Shown one piece after another: positions 5,512-46,167 of a stretch of 64,000 nucleotides of DNA; position 1 is the stretch's first letter, and each line of letters opens with the position of its first letter. The DNA is from a virus: IMG/VR virus record IMGVR_UViG_3300045988_132810, positions 1 through 64,000 of that record; one strand, given 5' to 3'. The position numbers were made by a program, and so were the translations under genes. Under the pieces are notes generated by a model. That model had not been told where the DNA came from. It did no database searches and worked only from the letters and a program-made list of their open reading frames with translations.

Positions 5512-6588
5512 ATGGCTTTATGGAAGAAAAATGAGGTAACAGTAGATATTACTAACTATCGCCACTATTGGAGAGCACCAAAAAAATGGGGCAAAACTAC
5601 ATTGTTTGCAAATTTAATTAAAGAACTATATGGCGACATGAGTCATGGCCTATTGATTAGCTGTGGAAATGAGAGAGGTTATCTTGCTCTTGACAATCTA
5701 ATGGTTGCTGATTGCCCAGATTGGTCTACACTAATGGAAGTCGTTGACGAACTAGTAGAAAATAAGGACGAAAATTCGTTTTCTATTATTGCATTTGATA
5801 CCGTTGACGAATGGATTTCTATGGCTCAAAAGGAAATTGTGCGTCTTGACTATAAGAAGTCTGGCACCAAGCATGAATTTAATGCGTGTTTTGGAGGTTA
5901 TGGAGCTGGGCGTAGAAAAGTGGATGAGCTAATTAATTCCGTTATTACCAGACTAGAATCTAGTGGGTACTGTCTAGTGTTTATTGGGCACACTAAGATT
6001 AAGGATATTAAAGAGAAAAATGGCGATGAATACCAGATGCTTACATCTAATCTTTCAACAGATTATGATTCGATTTTTGCTAATAAGGCAGATATTTGTA
6101 TGATGGGTGTTATTGAAAGAGAAATTACTGATGGGCATGTAGATGGTGTTAGCAGATGGATGTACTTTCGTGGAAATGGATATATTGATGCAGGTGGTAG
6201 ATTTGAAGATATTGCTGACAGAGTAGAAGTTTCTGCAAAGAATTATATTGATACTGTCAAGGATGCAATTAAGAACTCTATTAAGTCTCATGACGCAACA
6301 GACGAATATATTGAGAGCAAATCAAAGCAGGAGAAAAAAGAAAAGGAAGACTATTATAATTCACATAAAGAGGATCTAATGGAAACAGACGAGTTGGATG
6401 TGGAAATTAGAAAAGACGAAGAATGCAAGAACCTTAAGGCAGAAATTAAGGGAGTTCTGTCATCTCTTTCTCCTGAAGACAAGAAAGCCAAACGTGCTGC
6501 CATAAAGGAAGCAGGACTTCCAGACCAGTTCGCCAAGGTTACAGATATTGCTATTCTAAACCAGATTCTTGAAGTAGTTTCACAGTAA
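5512..6588 (+). CDS. AAA/RecA-like ATPase (Sak4-like recombination/annealing protein)
   Basis: 358 aa; P-loop-like APKKWGKTT, FDTVDE Walker-B-like, FIGHTK; typical phage AAA_24 layout, judged by eye. Confidence 0.6.
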   Translation: MALWKKNEVTVDITNYRHYWRAPKKWGKTTLFANLIKELYGDMSHGLLISCGNERGYLALDNLMVADCPDWSTLMEVVDELVENKDENSFSIIAFDTVDEWISMAQKEIVRLDYKKSGTKHEFNACFGGYGAGRRKVDELINSVITRLESSGYCLVFIGHTKIKDIKEKNGDEYQMLTSNLSTDYDSIFANKADICMMGVIEREITDGHVDGVSRWMYFRGNGYIDAGGRFEDIADRVEVSAKNYIDTVKDAIKNSIKSHDATDEYIESKSKQEKKEKEDYYNSHKEDLMETDELDVEIRKDEECKNLKAEIKGVLSSLSPEDKKAKRAAIKEAGLPDQFAKVTDIAILNQILEVVSQ

Positions 6589-6601
6589 GGAGATACAACA
6601 A

Positions 6602-7267
6602 ATGAGCGCCACTTTAATTAGAAAATGCGCGTTCTGTGGGGAAGATATTGTTTTGACAAAGAATGATATGCATATGGTTTCTTACAAACAGAAAAGCTAT
6701 CATACTGAATGTTTTAAAACAATGTGTAATGGGCGAGTACTAAAAAACAACAGGTACTCGTCCATTTATTCAGATGCCTTACAGAATTTAGATCAACTAG
6801 AATCAGAAGCAAAAAAGAAATTAATGCATCGTTTTGTGCAAGACGAATTCAATGAGTATTTGATTGTACATTATGATGTTGGGGCATTAAGTCGTCGTTT
6901 TTGGTCAATTATTGCAGATATTCAATCTGGAAAATATAATGGAAGACGGTGCAAGCCAATTGAATTAGAAACCTTGTTTGATATGTGGAAGGACTATCAG
7001 AAAGAACTAGACAAAACAAATGCATGGAACAAGCGTCATGGCAAGGTGATTGACGGAGAGGTAAGAGTTAACTATGATCTTGCTATTTTAATGAGTAATT
7101 ATGTAAAATATTCAAAAGCCAAGGAAAAAGCAAAGAAAGAAGCAGAAGAGAAAGAGAAACAAAGTCGCGTTAAAAAGAGTGTAAACATTGATTATAGCAA
7201 AATTAAAGCAGTTGAACAGAATGATGGATTAGGGGATATTAGCGATCTTTTGGAAGACTTAATTTGA
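6602..7267 (+). CDS. hypothetical zinc-finger protein
   Basis: 221 aa; CAFCGE...YHTECF motif; K/E-rich C-terminus. Confidence 0.5.
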   Translation: MSATLIRKCAFCGEDIVLTKNDMHMVSYKQKSYHTECFKTMCNGRVLKNNRYSSIYSDALQNLDQLESEAKKKLMHRFVQDEFNEYLIVHYDVGALSRRFWSIIADIQSGKYNGRRCKPIELETLFDMWKDYQKELDKTNAWNKRHGKVIDGEVRVNYDLAILMSNYVKYSKAKEKAKKEAEEKEKQSRVKKSVNIDYSKIKAVEQNDGLGDISDLLEDLI

Positions 7268-9071: not shown

Positions 9072-9416
9072 ATGTCAAATGAATATAAGGATTGGCTCAA
9101 TGATCAAAAAGAGCAAAATGAAGTAATTTTTAATCAGCTTCGAAATGGAAAACATCCATTTATTAGTTTGGAAGAACTAGAATTTTTTATCCATTGTATT
9201 AACGATTTTGGTATAAATGGGTTGATTATTCAGCAAAGCTATGTTAATAATGGATTCTATCTTGGTGTGGATGACGCAACTATTAATAAGTGGATGGAAA
9301 AAGATTCGATGAATATTAGAGATTGCCACAAATGTGTCTATGAGGTTGGATGCAATGGCAATCCAGCAGGATGCACATCTTATAAGAGAGATGCGCCAGA
9401 TGGAGGATGTTATTAA
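9072..9416 (+). CDS. hypothetical protein
   Basis: 114-aa ORF after AAGGAG RBS. Confidence 0.55.
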   Translation: MSNEYKDWLNDQKEQNEVIFNQLRNGKHPFISLEELEFFIHCINDFGINGLIIQQSYVNNGFYLGVDDATINKWMEKDSMNIRDCHKCVYEVGCNGNPAGCTSYKRDAPDGGCY

Positions 9417-9417
9417 A

Positions 9418-9585
9418 ATGAATTTTGATAATCGGGTTGTGATTGTAAGTAATTATGCAACTGAAGCACTTAATAATGAACTGAGCTATTGGGGCGATCG
9501 TGGATTTAGGCTAGTCTCTACTGAAATGGCAGCGAATACATGTGGCGTTACAGTTATGTATCTATTTTTTACAAAAGAGGCGTAA
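9418..9585 (+). CDS. hypothetical small protein
   Basis: ATG 9418 (MNFDNRVV) 1 nt after the upstream stop; internal Met of ORF-track 9334..9585. Confidence 0.45.
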   Translation: MNFDNRVVIVSNYATEALNNELSYWGDRGFRLVSTEMAANTCGVTVMYLFFTKEA

Positions 9586-10820: not shown

Positions 10821-11558
10821 ATGAGCCAACTGATTGATATGACTAATTGGATTATGGCAGAGCATGGAGTGCCTGATAGTAAAATCACGGTACTTAAAAG
10901 AGTTGAAAACAACAAACATGGATCTACACGCTGGTTGTGTGAGTGCTCTTGTAGTGAACATAACAAATTTATTGCAATTGGTCAAGACATTAGGAATGGT
11001 AAAGTTAGATCTTGTGGATGTTTGCAAAAAGAAGCCACAAAAAAGATGGGGCAAAGCAGGCCAACAGAAAACAAACGAGATTTGTCTGGAAAGTTTGGAA
11101 TACTTTGGACAACAAACACTAATGATGAAGTGTATTTTGACCTAGAAGATTCAGAAGAAATTTTAAAACACAGTTGGTATTTGAGTGTAAAAGGTTATCC
11201 TACTTCACAGATTAATGGAAAACCAGTTAGGTTGCACCAATTTATTGGGTGTTATAACCACGACCATAAAAATAGGAATAAATTAGACAACCGAAAATCC
11301 AATTTAAGACCTTGTACTCAACAGGAAAACACAAGGAATAGAAGCAAGAACAAAAACAATAAATCTGGATTTACTGGAGTGTATTGGGATAAGCAATATT
11401 GTAAATGGGGCGCTCAAATTAAAGTCAAACAAAAGACAATTAAATTAGGAACATTTGATGATAAAATCGAAGCGCTTATCGCAAGATTAAAGGCCGAAAA
11501 AGAAATTTACAAAGAGTTTGCTCCACAAAGAGATTTGTTTGATGAATATAATATTTGA
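10821..11558 (+). CDS. free-standing HNH endonuclease with C-terminal AP2-type DNA-binding domain
   Basis: 245 aa; HQF..HDHKNRNKLDNRKSNLR..TQQEN (HNH_3-like) followed by SGFTGVYWDKQYCKWGAQIKVKQKTIKLGTF (AP2-like). Confidence 0.7.
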   Translation: MSQLIDMTNWIMAEHGVPDSKITVLKRVENNKHGSTRWLCECSCSEHNKFIAIGQDIRNGKVRSCGCLQKEATKKMGQSRPTENKRDLSGKFGILWTTNTNDEVYFDLEDSEEILKHSWYLSVKGYPTSQINGKPVRLHQFIGCYNHDHKNRNKLDNRKSNLRPCTQQENTRNRSKNKNNKSGFTGVYWDKQYCKWGAQIKVKQKTIKLGTFDDKIEALIARLKAEKEIYKEFAPQRDLFDEYNI

Positions 11559-11578
11559 TTTATAAGGAGATTGAGACT

Positions 11579-12232
11579 ATGACAAAAGAAACTTTGACTG
11601 TACATCGTGCTCTTGCAGAACTTAAGGTTATTGATTCACGCATCAATAATGCGATTTGTTCTGGTACGTTTGTGGTTGCGAATAAGCATTCTAATGAGAA
11701 GATTCATGGAGTGACCATTAATGAGTTTAAGAACAGCATGAAGTCAGATTTCCAGAAAGTGTCTGATCTGATTGCAAGACGTAATGCAATCAAGAAGGCG
11801 GTTGTTGCATCTAATGCAGTAACGAAGGTTAAGGTTGGTGACAACGAATACACAGTTGCTACCGCAATTGAGATGAAGAATCATGGGATGGAGTTCAAGA
11901 ACACATTCAAGAAGTGTCTTGAAGCTCAGTATGCTGTAGCAAAGAATGAGCTTGATAAGAACAGTGGTGATCCTCTTGAGAAGAGAGCAGAGAATTATGT
12001 TCTTAGTGTCATTCAGGCACAGCCGAAGGACTCTAAAATGGCTGTTGATTCGGAAGCGATGAAGAATCTTCGTGCTCAGTACATCAAGGATAACACTTAT
12101 GACATCATTGATCCTATTGGTGTCAAGGATGCCATTGAGCAGCTTGACAATGAGATTTCTAGTTTTATTACTGAAGTTGATGCGGCACTTTCGGTTAGTA
12201 ACGCACTAACTGTGCTTGATATCGAGTATTAA
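11579..12232 (+). CDS. hypothetical protein
   Basis: ATG 11579 (MTKETLTV) 10 nt after AAGGAG; 217 aa, predicted helical. Confidence 0.55.
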   Translation: MTKETLTVHRALAELKVIDSRINNAICSGTFVVANKHSNEKIHGVTINEFKNSMKSDFQKVSDLIARRNAIKKAVVASNAVTKVKVGDNEYTVATAIEMKNHGMEFKNTFKKCLEAQYAVAKNELDKNSGDPLEKRAENYVLSVIQAQPKDSKMAVDSEAMKNLRAQYIKDNTYDIIDPIGVKDAIEQLDNEISSFITEVDAALSVSNALTVLDIEY

Positions 12233-12473: not shown

Positions 12474-12757
12474 ATTATTTTTCGTCAAAGTTTAAGTCTT
12501 AAAGTTGTAAAGAGGGCTTTTAGATAATTATTAATTAAAATTGTGTGCCCACAAAGTTTTACAAAATCCTTGAGCAATGGTTTGGTTTCAAGTTCAATGG
12601 CCATAGGTTATCCACAAGGCTGAATGGTAGCAATCCTTGTGTGAAAATAGGTTAATGTGTGAAATATATAGAATTTCGAGTACTAGCAGAGCTGGGCATC
12701 TCTGAAAACTGCCCATTGATATGGCGGAGTGATGGAAGCAGTAGACATAGCAGACTT

Positions 12758-13525
12758 TTTCAGAAAGTAATTCTTTTTAAGAGATTCATACAAAGTGCTT
12801 AAGAATTACCTAATTTAAAATGTTAGGTGGATTGTATGAAAAAATGGGAAAGATTTACTCGGCAAGAGATTGAACAATTTGTAAAAGATAGTTTTAGTTA
12901 TGCTCAATTAGCAAAAAAGTGTGGATATAAAGGCGGGAGTAGTTTACAACAAATAAAGCAAATGGTAGAACAGTTTGAGCTAGACGTATCACATTTTACT
13001 GGGCAAGGGTGGCTTGCAGGAAGAACATACGAAAGTAAAAAATATATTCAGTTTAACGAATATATAAAAAGCAAATATGTCCAGACTAATAAACTTCGAA
13101 AAAAATTATTAAAAGAAGGACTTAAAGAGCATGTATGTGAATGTTGTTTAAATTCTATGTGGAATGGAGTGCCAATACCACTTGAAGTTCATCATATAGA
13201 CGGTGATAAAAACAACAATGATTTGGAAAATCTTCAATTATTGTGTCCAAATTGTCATGCATTAACTGATACTTATCGAGGAAGAAATACGAGAAGACAC
13301 AAGGAGAAAACATCAAATTGAAATCTCTTGTAGGAGCACCAAGTCAGGAAACTACTTGCGTGAATGACCCCTAAACGGCGAACAGTTCTGAGAACGCCGT
13401 ACCAATCCAACACTTGTTGGAAGTGCGTAGAGACTATACAGGGTCAACCTAAGTCGAAAGATATGGTTAAGACATAGTCCAGCCCACAACGTAGAAATAC
13501 GGCCATGGTGACATGGAGTGGGATG
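12758..13525 (+). mobile_element. group I intron (768 nt) in the tRNA-Leu(UAA) anticodon loop, carrying an HNH ORF
   Basis: Follows exon U34 and ends in G. Core-like elements are GTGCGTAGAGACTATACA (13423-13440, R-like) and AAGACATAGTCC (13469-13480, S-like). The ORF sits in the 5' part. Confidence 0.75.
12836..13321 (+). CDS. intron-encoded HNH homing endonuclease
   Basis: ATG 12836 after AGGTGG RBS; EVHHIDGDKNNNDLENLQLLCPNCH motif. Confidence 0.85.
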   Translation: MKKWERFTRQEIEQFVKDSFSYAQLAKKCGYKGGSSLQQIKQMVEQFELDVSHFTGQGWLAGRTYESKKYIQFNEYIKSKYVQTNKLRKKLLKEGLKEHVCECCLNSMWNGVPIPLEVHHIDGDKNNNDLENLQLLCPNCHALTDTYRGRNTRRHKEKTSN

Positions 13526-13635
13526 AAAATCTGCTGGTAGTAATACCGTGCGGGAGCAAAGCCCGTCTCCGCTACCACGCGAACAAATGGAATGCGTTAA
13601 GTAATGTGTGGCTGACTGACCTAAGAGTCAAATAT

Positions 13636-13709
13636 GCAAGCGTAACTCAGTTGGATAGAGTGCCTCGCTACGAACGAGGAAGACATGGGTTCAAATCCTA
13701 TCGTTTGCA
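13636..13709 (+). tRNA. tRNA-Arg(ACG): tRNA-Arg(ACG)
   Basis: Acceptor GCAAGCG/CGTTTGC, D arm ACTC..GAGT, anticodon arm CCTCG-CTACGAA-CGAGG, T arm ATGGG-TTCAAAT-CCTAT. Confidence 0.85.
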
Positions 13710-13720
13710 TTCTTTAATAT

Positions 13721-13805
13721 GCCCGAATGATGGAATTGGTAGACATGCAGCTCTCAAAAAGCTGTGCCGCAAGGCGTGTGAGATCGTGGCTCACTTCGGG
13801 TACCA
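13721..13805 (+). tRNA. tRNA-Leu(CAA): tRNA-Leu(CAA), CCA encoded
   Basis: Acceptor GCCCGAA/TTCGGGT, anticodon arm CAGCT-CTCAAAA-AGCTG, long variable arm, T arm GTGAG-ATCGTGG-CTCAC (atypical T-loop), A-CCA. Confidence 0.8.
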
Positions 13806-13971
13806 AATGGTAGTAAGTAGTGCAAATTTTATATCAGATAACCAGTAAGGATAAAATCCGTTGCAGGATTTGCTCCCTGTATCGAGAAAGATTAAATTTG
13901 AACTCGCTGAAAGTAGCTGGTGAATGGGTATAAAATGGAGTCATGCACGGCTCCGCTTGCTATCATTACCA
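13806..13971 (+). ncRNA. structured RNA X1 (unknown family): 12-bp terminal helix, NCCA 3' end, starts directly after the tRNA-Leu CCA
   Basis: Terminal helix AATGGTAGTAAG (13806-17) pairs with CTTGCTATCATT (13956-67), then A-CCA. Inner helices are GTGCA/TGCAC (13820-24/13944-48) and ATTTTATA/TATAAAAT (13826-33/13929-36). Homologous to X2 with compensatory changes. Confidence 0.6.
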
Positions 13972-14024
13972 CAGGTCTTTGTGGCAACTGTACGACCTTA
14001 TAAACTACTAAAGTTGCAACATAT

Positions 14025-14475: not shown

Positions 14476-14503
14476 CTTTCAACACATGGAAGGACGACAA
14501 AGA

Positions 14504-15250
14504 ATGAATGACAAAATTGACGATATTGGAATTTATACTGATATACATGAAAGTGGTAAAAGAAATAAGGATGGTAATAAAATGTATTATGCCACCTGTA
14601 AAGTGTGTGGAACAATAGTAGAAAAGAAATTGGCCAATATCAAGCGAAGTAATAAAATTTGTTGTCACAAAACACAAAAAAACAATTTAAATAAGATTAA
14701 TGACATGCCAGTTGGCTGGATCAATAAATCAGATTTAAATAAAAAAATTTATGATACGTGGAAAGGAATGTGGAATAGAACAACTGAAAAATGTTGGGGG
14801 AAATACCCTACTTACATAGGGACAACAGTTGATGATTCATGGAGATTGCTTAGTAATTTTGTAAATGATATCAAAGAATTGCCCGGATATGAAGAGTGGG
14901 CAAATTCTAAAAAAAGAATGATGATGCTAGATAAAGACACATTGGTTGATGGGAATAAACACTATAGCAAAGAAACTTGTTGTTTTATCACAGCTTTAGA
15001 ATCGAGCAAAGACGTGAATAAAAGGCATCCTGATAATACTTTGAAAGCAAATGCAGCTAGTGTTAAGAAGTGTTCTATCCCAGTAAAAATAATGAATAAG
15101 CAAACTTTCGAAGAAAAGATTTTCCCTTCACTTCGAGAAGCGTGTAGAGTAATGGGATGGAATGAAGGTAATGCTTGGAAGGTAGTAAGTGATAAGTATC
15201 CATATAACAGTTCTGTAGAAGGATGGACAATAGAACAACTAAATGAATAA
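14504..15250 (+). CDS. putative free-standing homing-endonuclease-like DNA-binding protein
   Basis: ATG 14504 after GAAGGA RBS. N-terminal zinc-finger-like CKVCGT..CCHK resembles the N-terminus of the 10821 HNH-AP2 protein. C-terminal FPSLREACRVMGWNEGNAWKVV looks like a nuclease-associated HTH module; no clear catalytic motif seen. Confidence 0.4.
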   Translation: MNDKIDDIGIYTDIHESGKRNKDGNKMYYATCKVCGTIVEKKLANIKRSNKICCHKTQKNNLNKINDMPVGWINKSDLNKKIYDTWKGMWNRTTEKCWGKYPTYIGTTVDDSWRLLSNFVNDIKELPGYEEWANSKKRMMMLDKDTLVDGNKHYSKETCCFITALESSKDVNKRHPDNTLKANAASVKKCSIPVKIMNKQTFEEKIFPSLREACRVMGWNEGNAWKVVSDKYPYNSSVEGWTIEQLNE

Positions 15251-15361: not shown

Positions 15362-15371
15362 AAAATTATAT

Positions 15372-15442
15372 TATCGTATAGCTTAATGGGAAAGCGCCCT
15401 CACTATCAGAGGGAGATACTTGTTCGATTCAAGTTGCGTTAG
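15372..15442 (+). tRNA. tRNA with non-canonical anticodon loop ACTATCA (formally UAU, Ile-like)
   Basis: Acceptor TATCGTA/TGCGTTA (one U-U mismatch), D arm GCTT..AAGC, anticodon stem CCCTC/GAGGG, T arm ACTTG-TTCGATT-CAAGT; C33 and C37 are unusual. Confidence 0.55.
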
Positions 15443-15520
15443 AAAAATGTGGATGCTATGCACGTCGCGCGCCGCCACCAAACAAAGCATAGCTGGCGCT
15501 GTGGAAAGACACAGAGATCT

Positions 15521-39039: not shown

Positions 39040-40017
39040 ATGGGGAAAGTGACTTGGACTAAAGAACAGGAAGAGTATCTAGAAAAATTATATTCACAAT
39101 ACCTTCCATTAAAAGATATTGTTGAGAAAATAAATGATTTTTCTGGGATTGCCCGTACATATACGGCAGTCTCTAATAAAGCAGGAAGTATGGGGTTAAC
39201 TAAAAAATATATAAAGCAAAATAATGCTCATTTTGAAGCGATTTATCAAAATTACAATTGGTATTATGACATGTTCGTTGAAAGAGGATTGAATCATGAC
39301 GAAATGGCAAAAATCGCGAGCTGTACAAAACGAGTAATAGAGAAATGGGGACAAGAAAAGCACCATATAGACACATACACTAGGATGAAAAATAAACAAA
39401 TAAATGCACAACAGCATGATTTAATTATTGGTTCATTGCTAGGAGATGGACACATTGATAAAAGAGAAGATTTCCCATTGTTTATTGTAAGTCATGCAAA
39501 AAATCAAAAAGATTATCTGTATTATAAATATGAAATTATGAAAGATTTGTGTGAGATGACTCCAACGGAGTACAATGGGAAAAAAGAATATTCTATAATG
39601 GGCAGTGTATGTAATTGTCAAGATTTTTATAGATTCAATACTAGGACATACTATTCGTTAAAGCCGTTTCGAGATATGACAAAAATAGACTTAATTCGTT
39701 GTCTTAATGAATATTCATTCTCTATTTGGATGTTAGACGATGCGCATTGTAATATAAAAGGATATTGGGAGTTGTGCGCTCCATTGGAAACAGAGTCTGA
39801 AAGAAAAGAGCTGATATCATCCCTTCAAAACAAATTTGGCCTATCAACAGTTCAGAAAAAAGACAATAGATATTTTCGATTTCATTCAGAAGATTCTTTA
39901 AAAATTACAAAAATAATATTAAACAACATCCCCCACAATTTAGATATTGTGCAAGATAAGATATTGTCTAAAAATAAATATCGTGCATTAGGAGGTGAAA
40001 AAAATGAGTTTCGTTAA
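39040..40017 (+). CDS. free-standing LAGLIDADG homing endonuclease with N-terminal HTH-like region
   Basis: LIIGSLLGDGHIDK and SIWMLDDAHC (two LAGLIDADG-type motifs); 3' end overlaps the dnaE start. Confidence 0.75.
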   Translation: MGKVTWTKEQEEYLEKLYSQYLPLKDIVEKINDFSGIARTYTAVSNKAGSMGLTKKYIKQNNAHFEAIYQNYNWYYDMFVERGLNHDEMAKIASCTKRVIEKWGQEKHHIDTYTRMKNKQINAQQHDLIIGSLLGDGHIDKREDFPLFIVSHAKNQKDYLYYKYEIMKDLCEMTPTEYNGKKEYSIMGSVCNCQDFYRFNTRTYYSLKPFRDMTKIDLIRCLNEYSFSIWMLDDAHCNIKGYWELCAPLETESERKELISSLQNKFGLSTVQKKDNRYFRFHSEDSLKITKIILNNIPHNLDIVQDKILSKNKYRALGGEKNEFR

Positions 40018-42322
40018 TCTCCACGTACATAGCGCTCAAGGCTCACTTCTTGACTCTATTCTTACTGTAAAACAAATTGCTCAGTATGCGAAAGACAATG
40101 GGCAACCAGCAATTGCTCTAAGTGACCATGGCTTTATGTATGCGTCAATGAATCACGTTATTGAATGTCAAAAGCTTGGCATCAAACCTATCACTGCATG
40201 TGAAATTTATGAATGTGATGACCATATGCTTAAAAACGATACAAAAGACAATGTGCAACCAAGATATCATTTGCTTTTAATTGTAAAAAATCAAATCGGG
40301 AAAGATAACCTTTTTAAAATAGTATCAGAAGGATGTACGAATGGCATGTATAAAAAGCCAAGAGTGTCAATTCAGTGGATCAAAGACAACAATTTAGGGG
40401 AAGGTATTATTTGTCTCACTGCATGTCAAGCTGGACGACTAGCAAAATACCTTGACACAGGAATGTATCAAGAAGCAGAAGAATTTGTTAATCTGCTTAA
40501 AGACACATTTGATTATGTTGCTTGTGAGATTCAGTCACATCCAACAGAGTCTCAGCTAAGGTCAAACACTCTTATTTGGAAATTTGCTAATCATCTTCAA
40601 ATTCCATATGTCATTACAACAGATGCTCATATGCTGAGAGCAGATCAACTAGATACACATTCAATCTTTGTAGAAATTGGAGAAGGCAGAGAAGCAGGAG
40701 AAACTTATATTGGATGCCACCTTCAAAATGAAGAAGACATTTATAAATATCTTGGAAATTGGAATCTAGACAGGGTAATTCAGCATGGTATTGATGAAAC
40801 AATTCACATTGCCAATATGGTGGATGACAATATTGATTATGAGTTAAATAAGGGTACAATAATGCCAAAGGCTCATATCCCAGACGGATATGACACAGAG
40901 TCATATTTTAGATATTTAGTATATTCTACATTTGATGAAAAGTTTGGGCATATGCCACAAGAAGAGCAGGATGCACGTAGAGAAAGAATTGAGTCTGAAA
41001 TTCCCGTCTTGAAAGAATTAGACTTTTTGAACTATCTTTTAATTCAGTATGAATTTTGTAATGAATGTGATAGGCGTGGAATCCCAAGAGGGTATAGTCG
41101 TGGTTCCGCTGCAAATTGCCTTTGCGTTTTTATGCTAAATATTACTCAAATAGATAGTGTAAAATATGATCTAGACTTTACAAGATTCGCGAATCTAGGT
41201 CGTAAAGGCTCGGCAGCAGATATTGACTTGGATATTTCAAAAGCTAGAAGACAAGAAGCAATCCAAGTCCTGTGTGATATTTTTGGACAAGATCACGTTG
41301 CACCAATGGCAACATTTAATACACTCAGCACTAAAGTAGCAATTAGTGATATTGGAAAAGTATTAAATGACAAACAGGACAGCCCATACTTTGGGCAAAT
41401 CCCATATAGTCTGAGGAACGAAGTAACAAAAATGATTCCTACAATCAAGACATTAAACGATCTTGGTGAGTCGGAAGACAAAGACATGTTGCTTAAAGAC
41501 CTTATTGGCAAGAACGAAAAACTTGATAAAATTTATAAACAATTCCCTTTATGGTTTAAATATGTTATGGAGCTTGAAGGGCTCCCAAAATCGCGGGGTC
41601 GTCATGCAAGCGGTACTCTATTAACTCCTAAACCAGTATTACATTATGCCCCATTATGTTTAGATAATGAAAAGCATGTTATGGCACAATTTGAAATGCA
41701 TATATGCCAAGATACTGATGGTGGAATGGGCCTCGTTAAGGAAGATGCACTTGGGCTTGAAACATTAGACATCCTCGATTCGGCTTTAAAAAATGCCAAT
41801 TTAACATGGAAAGACGTTGATATTAATCATTTAAATATTGATGATAAGAAAGTATTTAAAGAAATCTATGCTTCTGGCAATACTGTTGGGATCTTCCAAT
41901 TTGAAAGCGCCGAGGCAAGGAACATGAGTATTGCGGCGCATGTTGACAACATTGAGGATGTTATCGCCATAAATGCAAGTAATCGTCCCGGAACAAAAAA
42001 TAGTTTTCCTGATTATTGCAAAAATAAATTGTGCCCAGAATCCATTCAATGTATACATCCAGATTTAAAAAAACTATTTCAAAAAACATGGGGAATTCTT
42101 TTATATCAAGAAGATTCGCTCCATTTGCTTGCATATGCAGGTTTTAATGAGGTAGAACAGGACACTGGACGTAGGGCCATCGGCAAAAAAAAGAAAGATG
42201 TTATGGCCTCTTTGTATACACAATTTGCAGATGGGCTAAGAAAAAAACAATGGACAGAGCAACAAATCAAAGAAGTTTGGGCTTTACTTGAGAAACAAGC
42301 AGAATATAGCTTCAATCGTGGT
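40004..42322 (+). CDS. dnaE: DNA polymerase III alpha subunit, exon 1
   Basis: PHP-domain start FVNLHVHSAQGSLLDS; ORF ends ..AEYSFNRG then a TAA inside the intron. Confidence 0.85.
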
Positions 42323-42532
42323 TAACACAATGGCCCCTTATATTGGCGACAATATATTGAACACCGAATATGCTGGAACACCCTTAGAGCTTCACATACC
42401 AAGGCGTAATAGTTGTGGAGATTGGGCAATCAGCAGGGAGTAATGACCCTCAACGACCACCAAGGTGCTTCTCTCAGAGAAGATGGTATGGTCTAATCCC
42501 TTTTAAATACTGCGAAAGCAGGGGTATAAATG
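42323..42532 (+). mobile_element. ORF-less group I intron (210 nt) in dnaE
   Basis: Exon 1 ends in T and the intron ends in G. Joining restores FNRG-HAVAYSLLSY..YYPVEFM, colinear with the FNKSHxxAY..HYPxEFM block of DnaE. Core-like AATCAGCAGG (42428-37) and TCAACGAC (42450-57). Confidence 0.75.
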
Positions 42533-43552
42533 CATGCTGTTGCTTATAGTCTGTTATCTTATCTTACCGCATGGATGAAAGTATATTATCCAGTAGAATT
42601 TATGACCGCACTTTTGACAGCGAAGTCGGACAATACTTCAAAGCTTAGTGTTATTATTACAGATTGTCATAGAATGGGAATCAAAGTACTTCCGCCTAAG
42701 ATTAATGAGTCTGAATTTTCTTTTAAGGCTAAGCCAGAGACTAAAGAAATCCTTTTTGGTTTTGGCGCAGTAAAAGGCATTGGCGAGTCAGTAATTACTA
42801 AGATTATTGAGAACCAGCCATATAGCAGCTTTGATGATTATCTGTCAAAAATCCAAGATAAAGCGGCCACAATTGCTCTAATTAAAGCTGGTGCTTTCCC
42901 TACTTCTAATAAAATGAAGCTGATGAGAAAGTATGCTACCTTATCGTATGATAAGAAAGAATATAAACCAGTTCAATCATATGGGACAAAAGCAAAATTA
43001 TTGCTAAATTGGGATATCAACGTAGATGATTACAAGGCTGGCAAAAAAGTAGATAAAGAAGCCGTGCTGCAATTGTATAATGCAAAGCGTAAAGAAAAGT
43101 TCGACCAAGTGCAAGAGGTCAAATATAAAGCGTATATGACAGAGTTCCAACAAAAATATGCTAGAGATCAATTCCTATGGGAATACGAAAGCTTATCAAT
43201 GTTTTTGACAGAGAACCCATTGCAAGAAGGTGTAGATTTAATAAACGCTAATTGGGATGATGTCCCGAATGGAGAAAAAACAGTTGTCTTGTGTGTTATA
43301 TCAGACATAAAGCGCAAGAAAGATAAAAACAACAATCCCTTCGCATATCTAGATTTGATTACTTCTGATAGAATTATTGAAGCGACTATTTGGAGTAGAC
43401 AACTAAAAGAATATTTTGATCTTATCTCGAAGGGCAAGTGCCTTGCAATTCTTGGAAGGAAAGAAGACGATCATTTGTTCGTTGAAAAAGTTAAACCCTA
43501 CACCGTTTGGCTCGAAAAAATAAAACATACACGTGCCAAAAAGACATCTTGA
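42533..43552 (+). CDS. dnaE: DNA polymerase III alpha subunit, exon 2
   Basis: Same frame as exon 1 after intron removal; HhH-like and OB-fold-like C-terminal parts. Confidence 0.85.
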   Translation, partial: HAVAYSLLSYLTAWMKVYYPVEFMTALLTAKSDNTSKLSVIITDCHRMGIKVLPPKINESEFSFKAKPETKEILFGFGAVKGIGESVITKIIENQPYSSFDDYLSKIQDKAATIALIKAGAFPTSNKMKLMRKYATLSYDKKEYKPVQSYGTKAKLLLNWDINVDDYKAGKKVDKEAVLQLYNAKRKEKFDQVQEVKYKAYMTEFQQKYARDQFLWEYESLSMFLTENPLQEGVDLINANWDDVPNGEKTVVLCVISDIKRKKDKNNNPFAYLDLITSDRIIEATIWSRQLKEYFDLISKGKCLAILGRKEDDHLFVEKVKPYTVWLEKIKHTRAKKTS

Positions 43553-43976: not shown

Positions 43977-43992
43977 CAATACAAAATTATTG
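43977..43992 (+). promoter_or_regulatory. conserved intergenic motif copy (CAATACAAAATTATTG)
   Basis: Starts right after the upstream stop; 9 nt upstream of ATG 44002. Confidence 0.6.
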
Positions 43993-44001
43993 GAGGCAAC
44001 T

Positions 44002-44592
44002 ATGCAGAAGTTTACTGTTGCTCTAGATTGTGATGAGGTACTTAATAATCTCATTGAGAAAACTCTAGAGCTATATAACACGAGACATGACACAGAACTA
44101 ACGACAGAGATTTTCACGCAATATGACTTTTACAAATGCCTTCCATTTGAAGTAGCTGAGGAACTAACTTCTATTTTTATGGAGAAAGAGCTGTGGGATT
44201 CACTATCCCCAGCTCCTGATTCTCAGTGGGGTGTTAAGAAGCTAATTGATAATGGGTATGATGTCTACGTTGCAACAGCAACGCATTACTCAAATTTTGC
44301 GTGGAAAGTTGATTGGTTCGCTAATAACTTCCCATTTATTGACCAGAAACATATTATCTGTATTCAAAACAAGTCGCTATTGCATGTAGATGTACTTGTT
44401 GATGATTGTGCAGAGAATTTAATGGCTACAAATTATGCGGTTGATAGAGTGCTTCTTGACAAGCCATGGAATCGAAACGTACATGATGATGTGTATGGAA
44501 TTTACAGAGCTAATAACTGGGAAGAAATTGTAGATTATGTGAATGAACTATATAAAGAAAACCAAGGGCTTTATTTGATGGAGGGATGCTAA
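44002..44592 (+). CDS. 5'(3')-deoxyribonucleotidase (HAD family)
   Basis: ATG 44002 after GGAGG; VALDCDEVLNN (DxDxV HAD motif I). Confidence 0.6.
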   Translation: MQKFTVALDCDEVLNNLIEKTLELYNTRHDTELTTEIFTQYDFYKCLPFEVAEELTSIFMEKELWDSLSPAPDSQWGVKKLIDNGYDVYVATATHYSNFAWKVDWFANNFPFIDQKHIICIQNKSLLHVDVLVDDCAENLMATNYAVDRVLLDKPWNRNVHDDVYGIYRANNWEEIVDYVNELYKENQGLYLMEGC

Positions 44593-45837
44593 TTGATTGT
44601 AACTAAGCGTGATGGACGAAAGGTAGAATTTGATAAAACAAAGATCGAGAACGCTATTTTAAAAGCACATAAAAGTATTTACCATGGAGAGAATTTTGAA
44701 GATATTCAAGATTTTGCTGCAAAAGTTGCTTTCGATATCGAGTCAAGCAATTCTGCTTCTGAACTTTCCGTTGAAGACATTCAGGATATGGTTGAACGAA
44801 AGCTAATGGCGTCTCGGTTCAAAACAACTGCCAGAGCATATGTAAATTATCGTTTCTTGCATGAAATGGCGAGAAATCAATATCAAGAGCTAATGCAGAC
44901 CGTGTCAGAAAAGCTAACAGCGAATAATATCCAAAACCAAAATGCAAATGTTGACGAAGCTTCATTTGGTGGCCGTATTGGAGAGGCGAGCGATGTTGTG
45001 ACAAGACGTTATGCTCTAGAATACCTTGTCTCACCAATGGCAAAGGCCAACCATGAGAATAATGAGGTTTACATTCATGACCTTAATGCTTATGCGGTTG
45101 GTTCTCATAACTGTCTTAGCATTCCGTTCGACGATCTGCTTGCGAATGGATTCAATACTAGACAGACGGATGTGCGTCCTGCACAAAGTATTAATACGGC
45201 ATTTCAGCTTGTTGCGGTTATCTTTCAACTTCAGAGCTTACAACAGTTTGGCGGCGTAAGTGCTACGCATTTAGACTGGACGATGGTTCCTTATGTAAGA
45301 AAGAGCTTTTATAAGCACTTTAAGGATGGGGTCAAATATTGCCTACGAGATGAATGGGACGAACATTGGGACAGCGACTTTAATGATTCTCGTCCGATTG
45401 ACTGGGATGAATATAAAAACTATCCAGAGGCATATGAGTATGCACTGGATATGACAACAAAGGAAATTTATCAGGCCGTTGAGGGAATGTACCACAATTT
45501 AAATACACTTCAAAGTCGTTCTGGAAATCAGCTCCCATTTACATCAATTAATTATGGTACTTGTACGCTTCCAGAAGGACGTATGGTAACTAAAGCACTA
45601 CTTGATGTTTCTATCAAAGGCATTGGCAAACTTCATCGCACTAGTATTTTCCCATGTGGAATCTTTCAGTGCATGAAGGGAGTAAACCGCAAGCCAGAAG
45701 ATCCGAATTATGATCTATTCCAGTTGGCTCTAAAGTCTACAAGTCTTAGACTTTATCCTAATTATGCCAATGTAGATTGGAGTAATAATGCTGGATATGA
45801 CATTAATGATCCAAGAACGTACTTCAGTACCATGGGT
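44593..45837 (+). CDS. nrdD: anaerobic ribonucleoside-triphosphate reductase, exon 1
   Basis: TTG start; ATP-cone VTKRDGRKVEFDKTKIENAI; exon ends ..YFSTMG. Confidence 0.85.
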
Positions 45838-46167
45838 AAGCGTAAACTTATAGCTCATGTAAAACCTTTTGAACCTCGCCAGAGGGTGTCTAATTTAGGC
45901 TAACGGTTAGGACTCTACGAGTTGAGACCGTGCTAAGTAATTAAGAATAGATTATTTCAGGGCAATGGATGGTGATATGTGCGACAATTTATAAAATAAC
46001 TATTCTTAATTAAAAGTGTATCGACTATCCCTGATGAATGTATGGGAGTAGGGGCAGAGATTGGCGCTGCCGTTGTTTTAGGAAACGAAGCAACTGAGAA
46101 CCGAAGCGGAAGGCTATCGAAAGATAGAAGATATAGTCAGTGCAGATGGCAACATCTGATAAACACG
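45838..46167 (+). mobile_element. ORF-less group I intron (330 nt) in nrdD
   Basis: Exon 1 ends in T (ATGGGT) and the intron ends in G (AACACG). Joining gives ..STMG-CRTANGY.. (MGCR block of class III RNRs). S-like AAGATATAGTC at 46128-46138. Confidence 0.75.

Follow-up and report, generated by a model that had tools for sequence, protein, structure and literature searches.

Introduction

The classical group I intron of tRNA-Leu(UAA) genes goes back to reports of 1990, Kuhsel et al. (1990, as cited in PMC3984707) among them, and 5,292 introns of this kind were mapped in bacterial genomes, with the classical type named Leu.3Ug, in a survey that covered bacterial and archaeal genomes only (Williams, 2020, bioRxiv 10.1101/2020.01.27.920355). 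Here we describe the computational analysis of a viral DNA stretch of 64,000 nucleotides (positions 1 to 64,000 of the IMG/VR record IMGVR_UViG_3300045988_132810, referred to as the window), in which a phage gene for tRNA-Leu(UAA) is split in the anticodon. In all likelihood the insert is a mobile IC3 group I intron of the Leu.3Ug type that carries an HNH homing endonuclease gene in the loop of its P1 helix. It shares with the bacterial Leu.3Ug introns the host gene, the point of insertion (CUU/.../AAAA), the U at position -1, the terminal omega-G, the GAG guide directly 5′ of P2 and the compact core of about 200 nt, but differs from them in residing in a phage genome, in the 161-aa HNH protein encoded in the P1 loop and in its reduced P5. 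To judge from the sequence, its kinship with the cyanobacterial and plastid intron would consist of the same insertion site and the same IC3-type architecture only.

An endonuclease gene within a tRNA intron is known from Synechocystis PCC 6803, the tRNA-fMet intron of which encodes I-Ssp6803I (Bonocora & Shub, 2001, cited in PMC3984707). That intron, unlike the one in the window, is found in a bacterium, in a different tRNA and at a different position. Moreover, I-Ssp6803I belongs to the PD-(D/E)XK family, whereas the window endonuclease is an HNH protein. In phages, group I introns with HNH genes have been found in protein-coding genes, such as the DNA polymerase genes of SPO1 and Bastille, and in Twort-like phages and Silviavirus (PMC3984707, PMC11878797). 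These are likewise phage-borne introns of the self-splicing type armed with an HNH endonuclease, and the helicase-gene introns of Silviavirus have a core stretch of about 42 nt in common with the window, but they interrupt protein-coding genes. Indeed, all phage introns then known lay in protein-coding genes despite the many phage tRNA genes (Hausner, Hafez & Edgell, 2014, PMC3984707), group I introns of crAss-like and recoded phages have been described only in such genes (Yutin et al.; Borges et al.), and the huge-phage paper never mentions introns.

Two further systems come close to the window. Free-standing HNH and Seg endonuclease genes occur in phage tRNA clusters, as in T5-like phages and in T4 (SegB) (PMC13096335); unlike the gene described here, they lie outside introns and are accompanied by no ribozyme. 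The tRNAs of Lak megaphages contain introns that are called "enigmatic" in the accessible text of Devoto et al. (bioRxiv 10.1101/356790), where introns in phage tRNAs are said to have been unreported before. As in the window, these introns are located in phage tRNA genes, and identical intron sequences recur across phage genomes; in contrast to the window intron, they were found by tRNAscan in eukaryote mode and tested against Rfam, and the same accessible text reports neither a group I assignment nor an endonuclease. Our full-text literature search, which covered few subscription journals, revealed no phage tRNA gene reported to contain a group I intron, and Megablast and blastn searches of GenBank phages found no cultured phage with a related tRNA-Leu intron. 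This agrees with an earlier note, made from the window sequence alone, in which the arrangement was not recognized as described. Neither the ribozyme nor the endonuclease is of a new type; the novelty, as far as searched, is that the two are combined, that they occur in a phage tRNA gene and that the family is so large.

Results

The anticodon of a phage tRNA-Leu(UAA) gene is interrupted after U34

When the two exons (Table 1) were joined, ARAGORN recognized an 87-nt tRNA-Leu(taa), and the minimum-free-energy fold of the joined sequence was a type-II cloverleaf with a 7-bp acceptor stem (G1.U72), a 3-bp D stem, the anticodon stem GCAGA/UCUGC, the loop CUUAAAA, a 4-bp variable arm and a 5-bp T stem. 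The T arm, the 3′ strand of the acceptor stem, A73 and an encoded ACCA can also be read from the sequence of exon 2, and the cloverleaf with its long variable arm, A73 and the anticodon UAA is that of a bacterial-type tRNA-Leu. The predicted junction of the spliced exons consists of GCAGACUU joined to AAAAUCUGC. In the intact window, ARAGORN and the Rfam tRNA model RF00005 were both blank at the 12723-13577 locus, and the split tRNA was not called by the intron mode of ARAGORN (-i) either. The motif directly 5′ of the tRNA is kept right up to the tRNA 5′-end in all sibling phages described below and in the related contigs L011 and L364; it is possibly a promoter or a processing signal.

RF00005 also missed the tRNA-Leu(CAA) gene of the window and two of the three sibling alleles tested (A and B). 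As a separate observation, several type-II tRNA-Leu genes of phages called by ARAGORN escape RF00005 (positions 13721-13805 of the window; L346 and L348, ~7135-7230), one of which has a fully canonical T-loop, and covariance-model tRNA counts will under-report in these phages.

The insert is a group I intron of the Leu.3Ug type

A covariance model, R1, was constructed from 28 relatives, which included neither the window nor its close relatives L011 and L017. R1 matched positions 13332-13525 over its entire length (model positions 1-200 of 200) with 128.5 bits and an E-value of 3.2e-33. The match begins at the guide sequence, ends on the omega-G and is the sole one in the 64 kb, i.e., R1 detects no second Leu-type IC3 core in the window. 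A 17-mer taken from the putative core matched 18 viral contigs, including ORF-less introns of about 205 nt at the same anticodon site of tRNA-Leu(UAA) (L003, L013, and L015) and two close relatives bearing an HNH gene (L011 and L017/L018). L011 and L017, which were assembled independently, show the architecture of the window. RF00028, the group I model of Rfam, matched the ORF-less introns over its full length, with 49.9 bits (E 8e-10) for L003, 47.3 bits for L012 and 44.9 bits for L013, and its E-values for the ORF-less homologs ranged from 1e-8 to 1e-12.

The earlier note had proposed a tRNA-Leu(UAA) gene with two halves 768 nt apart that form a type-II cloverleaf, interrupted between U34 and A35 by a group I intron with an intact HNH ORF at 12836-13321. 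ARAGORN and the minimum-free-energy fold agree on the cloverleaf, and CTTAAAA is contiguous in the intron-less allele of L364. The group I assignment is borne out by the R1 match, by the covariation described below and by the RF00028 matches on ORF-less homologs. The insert does follow a U (U12757) and end in a G (G13525), and the strings noted as R-like and S-like turned out to be J6/7-P7 and J8/7-P7′ of a real group I core. The ORF proved intact and gave Pfam and PHROG matches, as detailed below. The close likeness to the tRNA-Leu(CAA) at 13721 was overstated, since the identity is 66%.

The guide sequence lies downstream of the ORF

The earlier note had not found the guide sequence by eye because it lies downstream of the ORF, 12 nt beyond the HNH stop codon. 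P1 forms by the pairs C12755-G13336 (C32), U12756-A13335 (U33) and the U12757.G13334 wobble (U34) at the 5′ splice site, which follows U12757, and it can be extended into the intron by pairing of 12758-12763 with 13328-13333. The P1 5′ strand is identical in L011 and L017. GAG is located directly 5′ of P2 in all Leu.3Ug members, the context in the window being UUGUAGGAG followed immediately by CAC, and the guide covaries with the exon across tRNAs: CAU goes with GUG (Met/Ile2), CCU with GGG (Arg-CCU), CUCU with GGAG (CUA tRNA) and CUU with GAG (Leu and Thr). From the position of the guide downstream of the ORF it follows that the HNH gene, its ribosome-binding site and the conserved 12767-12809 hairpin are all within the P1 loop. 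The hairpin is kept in L017 through G-C to G.U and U-A to U.G changes. An 8-bp complementarity between 12779-12786 and 13322-13329, partly kept in L011 and L017, would close the loop containing the ORF and partly compete with the extension of P1.

Two other guide candidates were rejected. GAG at 12781-83 was ruled out by L017, which has no G's there. AAGUC at 13342-46 shows perfect Watson-Crick pairing with GACUU, i.e., no wobble, and was ruled out because it is the 5′ strand of P2, covarying with 13354-58.

The core has the compact IC3 fold

The features of the compact IC3 type are all present: the guide abuts P2, a GNRA loop L2 is combined with a P8 receptor, and the P9 domain is small and consists of three helices. 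The helices of the window were projected onto a sequence-only MAFFT alignment of 49 cores, where 77.4% of the cells were paired compared with 61.1% in shuffles and 29-44% with partners slid, and the covariation score was 0.369 versus 0.133 in shuffled alignments (0 of 500 shuffles as high). Outer P2, P3, P8, P9.0 and P9b were 88-100% paired with many double changes, and P7 was invariant (five of its six pairs in all 49 sequences). P4, P6 and P9a looked weak (27-63% paired) because the window clade is shifted by one column relative to the majority, and this register shift is resolved in the model-guided alignment. In that alignment, which leans towards structure, 95.7% of the cells were paired and 34 of 43 pairs had changes on both sides. 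RNAalifold, run without the window clade, independently gave P2, P3, P4, P5, P6, P8 and P9b with compensatory changes in 27 of 37 pairs, and P6/P6a also shows compensatory changes in L011.

The layout of the core is that of the IC3-type tRNA-Ile intron of Azoarcus, the J6/7-P7-P3′-P8-P7′ segment of which is nearly the same as in the window (GUAGAGACUA.AC...CCUAAG...UAUGG..AAG.CAUAGUCCAG). The GAAA loop of L2, the 11-nt P8 receptor and the guide abutting P2 are also nearly as in the window. By analogy with Azoarcus, the P8 receptor would dock L2. In contrast to the window intron, the Azoarcus intron interrupts another tRNA after position 36 instead of 34, contains no ORF and has a long P5 with a second receptor. 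The tRNA-Met/Ile2(CAU) relatives in our census use the guide GUG.

The P1 loop encodes an intact HNH endonuclease

The HNH ORF is inserted in L1 between the 5′ splice site and the guide, leaving the ribozyme core intact. Its product scored above the Pfam thresholds of both HNH_3 (30.8 bits against 24.8) and HNH (26.2 bits against 21.4) and matched phrog_10822 at 1.2e-44, while searches of PDB and NCBIfam gave no informative close relative. The catalytic motif with the zinc-binding cysteines reads CECC...EVHHIDGDKNNNDLENLQLLCPNCH. Homologs with 35-40% identity are free-standing by or among tRNA genes in T5-like phages, S-CRM01, cr126_1 and GodonK, which fits an origin from endonucleases resident in tRNA clusters. 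In S-CRM01 (L368) and cr126_1 (L367) the annotation hinted at an HNH gene overlapping a tRNA-Leu, but the genes are actually free-standing beside intact tRNAs, with no ribozyme, and Dulem virus 42 has none either.

Sibling phages are intron-less and reveal a co-conversion tract

Twenty-one sibling phage contigs, mostly of 130-160 kb, were fetched via the gene upstream of the tRNA region (11555-12229). The protein identity of this gene is 96-98% in 20 siblings and 81% in L364, and that of the upstream flank is 92-97% and 77%, respectively; the downstream flank is also common to most siblings with up to 99% identity, and both flanks reach the borders of the tRNA. Neither the ribozyme nor the HNH gene occurs in any of the 21 siblings, all of which contain an uninterrupted tRNA-Leu(UAA) at the exact same spot. 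The ribozyme core is 94% identical to that of L011 and 89% identical to that of L017, compared with only 60-74% in the surrounding exons.

The intron-less allele of L364 is the tRNA allele of the window, including the T-loop and the variable arm, and differs mainly in the anticodon stem, which is CAGGT/ACCTG in L364 and GCAGA/TCTGC in the window. The latter is identical to the stem flanking the L011 intron, i.e., it is of donor type. No sibling phage was among the 90 viral contigs that have the same anticodon stem-loop in uninterrupted form. A tRNA of recipient type with donor-type bases on either side of the insertion site is the expected mark of homing with short co-conversion tracts, which would be roughly 6 nt and 9 nt long here. 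The presence/absence pattern in the 21 siblings and this signature endorse the proposal of the earlier note that the element is mobile.

The sibling locus also varies in another way: at least four bodies of tRNA-Leu(UAA), 67-73% identical to that of the window, were found there (L346-L366, ~7130-7230). Up to the last base, most siblings have the same upstream flank, and for alleles A and B this sharing extends to the downstream flank. The swap comprises exactly the whole tRNA and may be the result of homing-driven conversion or of an arms race with defences that target tRNAs.

The intron belongs to a large family in phages

A degenerate core pattern, which selects Azoarcus-like cores, was scanned in viral contigs and in bacterial and archaeal genome contigs and gave at least 120 matches in each of the two collections. 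Candidate exons were joined by brute force, checked by ARAGORN and scored for U at -1 and G at omega. Since exon calling was heuristic and the totals derive from the matches listed, they are lower bounds, and all shares given for the census refer to the matches listed. In viral contigs, at least 61 tRNA-Leu(UAA) genes (at least 62 with the window) are split between U34 and A35, at least 28 of them (29 with the window) by introns of 600 nt or more. In genome contigs, at least 66 are split at this site, three of them by introns of such length, all in Bacteroidales metagenome-assembled genome (MAG) contigs; thus long introns make up 28 of 61 viral-contig examples versus 3 of 66 bacterial-genome ones. 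The Leu(UAA) type accounts for 66 of the 105 tRNA-assignable cores in genome contigs, and the bacterial part of the census agrees with Williams (2020). The IMG/VR contigs may include some non-phage sequence, although many of the carriers are 100-190 kb contigs with tRNA arrays. Considering these data, the window intron is a member of a large family that has been overlooked in phages. Smaller groups of related introns in viral contigs interrupt Met(CAU), Arg(UCU), Thr(UGU) and CUA-anticodon tRNAs.

A homolog of the window HNH protein (34-74% identity, E 1e-23 to 1e-96) is encoded in 23 of the 31 long introns from viral and MAG-derived contigs, the window excluded, and its gene is located 5′ of the guide sequence in all 21 viral-contig cases. 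In the 595-kb huge phage LR756511.1 (L370), deposited unannotated, the U34/A35 site of a tRNA-Leu(UAA) is interrupted by a 700-nt intron (407820-411275, reverse complement, positions ~1321-2107), whose HNH homolog (41% identical) lies in the P6 loop and not in P1, suggesting more than one endonuclease invasion.

Two side observations were made on the relatives. In L077, L081 and L123, a 228-nt group I intron interrupts a CUA (amber-suppressor) tRNA after position 35, and the guide of this intron, GGAG, matches the exon sequence CUCU. L077 is the crAss-like phage cr115_1 (GenBank NC_055898.1), where the region of the split CUA-tRNA is unannotated; hidden suppressor tRNAs of this kind could explain the recoding/suppressor mismatches reported in crAss-like phages. 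In the 132-kb viral contig L004 (~9120-9490), a tRNA-like cloverleaf is inserted in P8 of a group I core, reminiscent of the "tRNA within a tRNA intron" described in Lak megaphages.

Surroundings of the split gene

The window derives from a large tailed phage with a G+C content of about 35%, and encodes DnaB, RecJ, an NAD-dependent ligase, a DNA polymerase, NrdD, Dit, a tape-measure protein and tail proteins. A skipping-rope RNA (RF02924, 15282-15361, 77.9 bits compared with the gathering threshold of 36.7) lies inside the tRNA cluster immediately 5′ of tRNA-Ile(UAU) (15371-15443). Between the two copies of tRNA-Ile(UAU), a 254-aa ORF (14486-15250) has a weak, sub-threshold match (E 0.003) to TIGR01453, a GIY-YIG family labelled "group I intron endonuclease", and the ORF may be a free-standing homing endonuclease gene of the cluster. 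Just upstream of the tRNA region, a 245-aa ORF (10821-11558) matches HNH_3 and AP2 of Pfam below threshold and may be another homing-endonuclease-like gene. The DNA polymerase ORF covers positions 39-793 of the 1190 of its PHROG profile and the NrdD ORF positions 4-401 of 718 (window regions 39995-43552 and 43990-45903), and these genes may be split by introns or inteins. The intergenic stretch 13806-14024 after the tRNA-Leu genes is common to the window and L011 (~5830-5975, reverse-complement orientation) and contains GUAGUAAGUAGUGCAAAUUU ... AAAUGGAGUCAUGCACGGCUCCGCUUGCUAUCAUUACC; no Rfam match was found in it, and it may represent an unclassified small RNA.

Table 1. Positions of the features of the split tRNA-Leu(UAA) gene in the window
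Feature	Position	Strand	Remarks
Hairpin-like motif GCUGGGCAUC..AAA.CUGCCC..GAUAU	12691-12722	+	Directly 5′ of the tRNA
tRNA-Leu(UAA) exon 1	12723-12757 (35 nt)	+	Acceptor 5′ strand, D arm, anticodon stem 5′ strand, C32 U33 U34; ARAGORN on joined exons
P1 5′ strand	12755-12763	+	Exon C32-U33-U34, then intron UU(U)CAG; pairs with 13328-13336
Group I intron (IC3, Leu.3Ug type)	12758-13525 (768 nt)	+	After U12757, ends in G13525
Hairpin in L1 (GUAAUUCUU / AAGAAUUAC)	12767-12809	+	Read from sequence; 5′ of the HNH ribosome-binding site
AAGAGAUU, candidate long-range partner of 13322-13329	12779-12786	+	8-bp complementarity
Shine-Dalgarno sequence AGGUGG of the HNH ORF	12825-12830	+	5 nt upstream of ATG 12836
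HNH homing endonuclease gene (161 aa) in P1 loop	12836-13321	+	ATG 12836 to stop 13321
AAUCUCUU, candidate partner of 12779-12786	13322-13329	+	Directly after the stop codon; read from sequence
P1 3′ strand/internal guide sequence UUGUAGGAG	13328-13336	+	GAG 13334-13336; aligns with R1 positions 1-5
P2 hairpin	13337-13362	+	GAAA tetraloop L2 at 13348-13351; 92-98% paired, double changes in all inner pairs
P3 5′ strand GACCC	13366-13370	+	Pairs with 13441-13445; 94-96% paired, every pair covaries
P4	13376-80 with 13395-99 (within 13376-13399)	+	R1 alignment; 96.6% paired in family
P5, very short	13383-84 with 13389-90	+	R1 alignment; reduced in window clade
P6/P6a (AC/GU + UCCAA/UUGGA)	13401-13424	+	RF00028 and R1 alignments; P6 92% paired
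P7 5′ strand GACUAU	13432-13437	+	Guanosine-binding helix; pairs with 13474-13479; P3 pseudoknot
P3 3′ strand GGGUC	13441-13445	+	Pairs with 13366-13370
P8	13448-13466	+	11-nt tetraloop-receptor motif CCUAAG...UAUGG, GAAA loop; 99-100% paired in family
P7 3′ strand AUAGUC	13474-13479	+	AUAGUCC invariant in all members
P9 domain, P9.0	13483-87 with 13518-22 (within 13483-13522)	+	92-98% paired, many compensatory changes
P9a	13490-13501	+	GAAA loop; P9 domain
P9b	13503-13516	+	GUGA loop; 94-96% paired, many compensatory changes
Omega-G, last intron nucleotide	13525	+	End of R1 match; G in all resolved family members
tRNA-Leu(UAA) exon 2	13526-13577 (52 nt)	+	A35 A36, anticodon stem 3′ strand, long variable arm; ARAGORN

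Discussion

The sequence of the element is that of a well-formed mobile group I intron, which is probably active. After transcription of the tRNA cluster, C32-U33-U34 and the first U's of the intron would pair with the guide AGGAG (13332-13336), about 575 nt downstream and just past the HNH stop, forming P1 with the U34.G13334 wobble at the splice site. The compact core (13337-13525) would fold into P2-P9 with the P3/P7 pseudoknot, the GAAA loop of L2 and the 11-nt receptor in P8. A free guanosine would then attack after U12757, omega-G13525 would take its place in the P7 site, and the exons, held together by the anticodon stem, would be ligated to the 87-nt tRNA-Leu with the anticodon loop CUUAAAA. 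The analogy of the Anabaena intron (Zaug et al., 1993, cited in PMC3984707) makes it probable that the anticodon stem, and no long P10 helix, brings the exons into line. Translation of the HNH protein may start at its own ribosome-binding site, either in the precursor or in the excised intron. A ribosome on the ORF would probably block P1, therefore translation and splicing are probably alternatives for each transcript. The endonuclease is expected to cut intron-less tRNA-Leu(UAA) alleles of co-infecting phages, into which repair would copy the intron together with a few flanking exon bases.

Several observations weigh against this interpretation. RF00028 had no match in the window at its gathering threshold (50 bits) or at E ≤ 10 on 12600-13700, and reached only 13.2 bits (E 0.35) on the isolated core downstream of the ORF. 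The earlier note had named the lack of a group I model match beforehand as a ground for rejecting its proposal, and for RF00028 this is formally what occurred. However, the silence is a false negative due to the limits of the model, because the ORF-less homologs score 45-50 bits and R1 matches end to end; no RF00028 seed is bacterial (Williams, 2020). The T-loop of the split tRNA, AGCAAAG, is non-canonical (A54, G55), and RF00005 is silent on the uninterrupted L364 allele, although it misses a canonical-looking sibling allele as well. The P1 loop is about 565 nt long, and only three exon bases are paired with the guide; the Anabaena intron is similar. P5 amounts to about 2 bp in the window clade and is flagged as non-canonical in the R1 alignment, thus the tertiary contact between L9 and P5 may be weak. 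Finally, the intron is present in only one of the 22 phages of the group.

Of the other explanations, the one that survives best, though we consider it unlikely, is that the intron self-splices but its HNH protein no longer drives homing, being inactive, aimed at another target or mainly a splicing helper, and that the intron arrived through ordinary recombination in which relatives exchanged a whole tRNA cassette. The four or more tRNA bodies between identical sibling flanks do indicate that whole tRNAs are replaced without any intron, the homologous HNH genes of S-CRM01 and cr126_1 stand free beside intact tRNAs, and 7 of the 31 long Leu.3Ug introns, among the matches listed, have no intact ORF. 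Against this, the window ORF is intact, its HNH/zinc motif is complete and its ribosome-binding site is good, and the intron is more conserved than its exons. The window tRNA, moreover, is chimeric: its outer parts are L364-like and only the anticodon stem is L011-like, which fits a short co-conversion and not a cassette swap.

It is less probable still that the tRNA gene is dead, i.e., that a mobile element disrupted it, the ribozyme splices poorly and the phage uses the tRNA-Leu(UAA) of its host. Such a fate could be read from the reduced P5, the very long L1, the odd T-loop with the silence of RF00005 and the rarity of the intron among the siblings. Yet every helix is intact in the window and all family-invariant core positions are kept, L011 and L017 keep the architecture in different tRNA bodies, and co-conversion has left the pairing of the anticodon stem perfect. 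The uninterrupted L364 allele has the same odd T-loop, which is hence older than the intron. An assembly chimera or a chance resemblance, for which only the metagenomic origin of all related sequences could speak, can be dismissed almost entirely in view of three independent contigs with the same architecture, a covariance-model E-value of 3e-33 and boundaries that coincide exactly with the tRNA anticodon, the U at -1 and the omega-G.

The rule given in reviews, that phage group I introns occur only in protein-coding genes, is overturned by the intron of the window and its many relatives. This rule reflects detection limits. The element escapes ARAGORN as well as the Rfam models for tRNAs and for group I introns. 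Beyond the window, we are inclined to think, with a good deal of reserve, that IC3 introns, often armed with HNH genes, are widespread and unrecognized in phage tRNA genes, mostly in Leu(UAA) but also in Met/Ile2(CAU), Arg, Thr and the amber-suppressor (CUA) tRNAs of crAss-like phages. If so, these introns would hide tRNAs, among them suppressors on which recoding depends, from standard annotation, and phage tRNA inventories, codon-usage arguments and searches for suppressors in recoded phages may be systematically incomplete. The tolerance of compact IC3 ribozymes to a 0.5-kb insert in P1 may also be of interest for the design of circular RNAs and trans-splicing. The locus, where 21 near-identical siblings lack the intron, several alleles could serve as targets and a co-conversion tract can be seen, offers a clean natural homing system, which could show how a free-standing HNH endonuclease of a tRNA cluster became intron-borne, and homing with short co-conversion tracts may drive the rapid turnover of alleles at phage tRNA loci.

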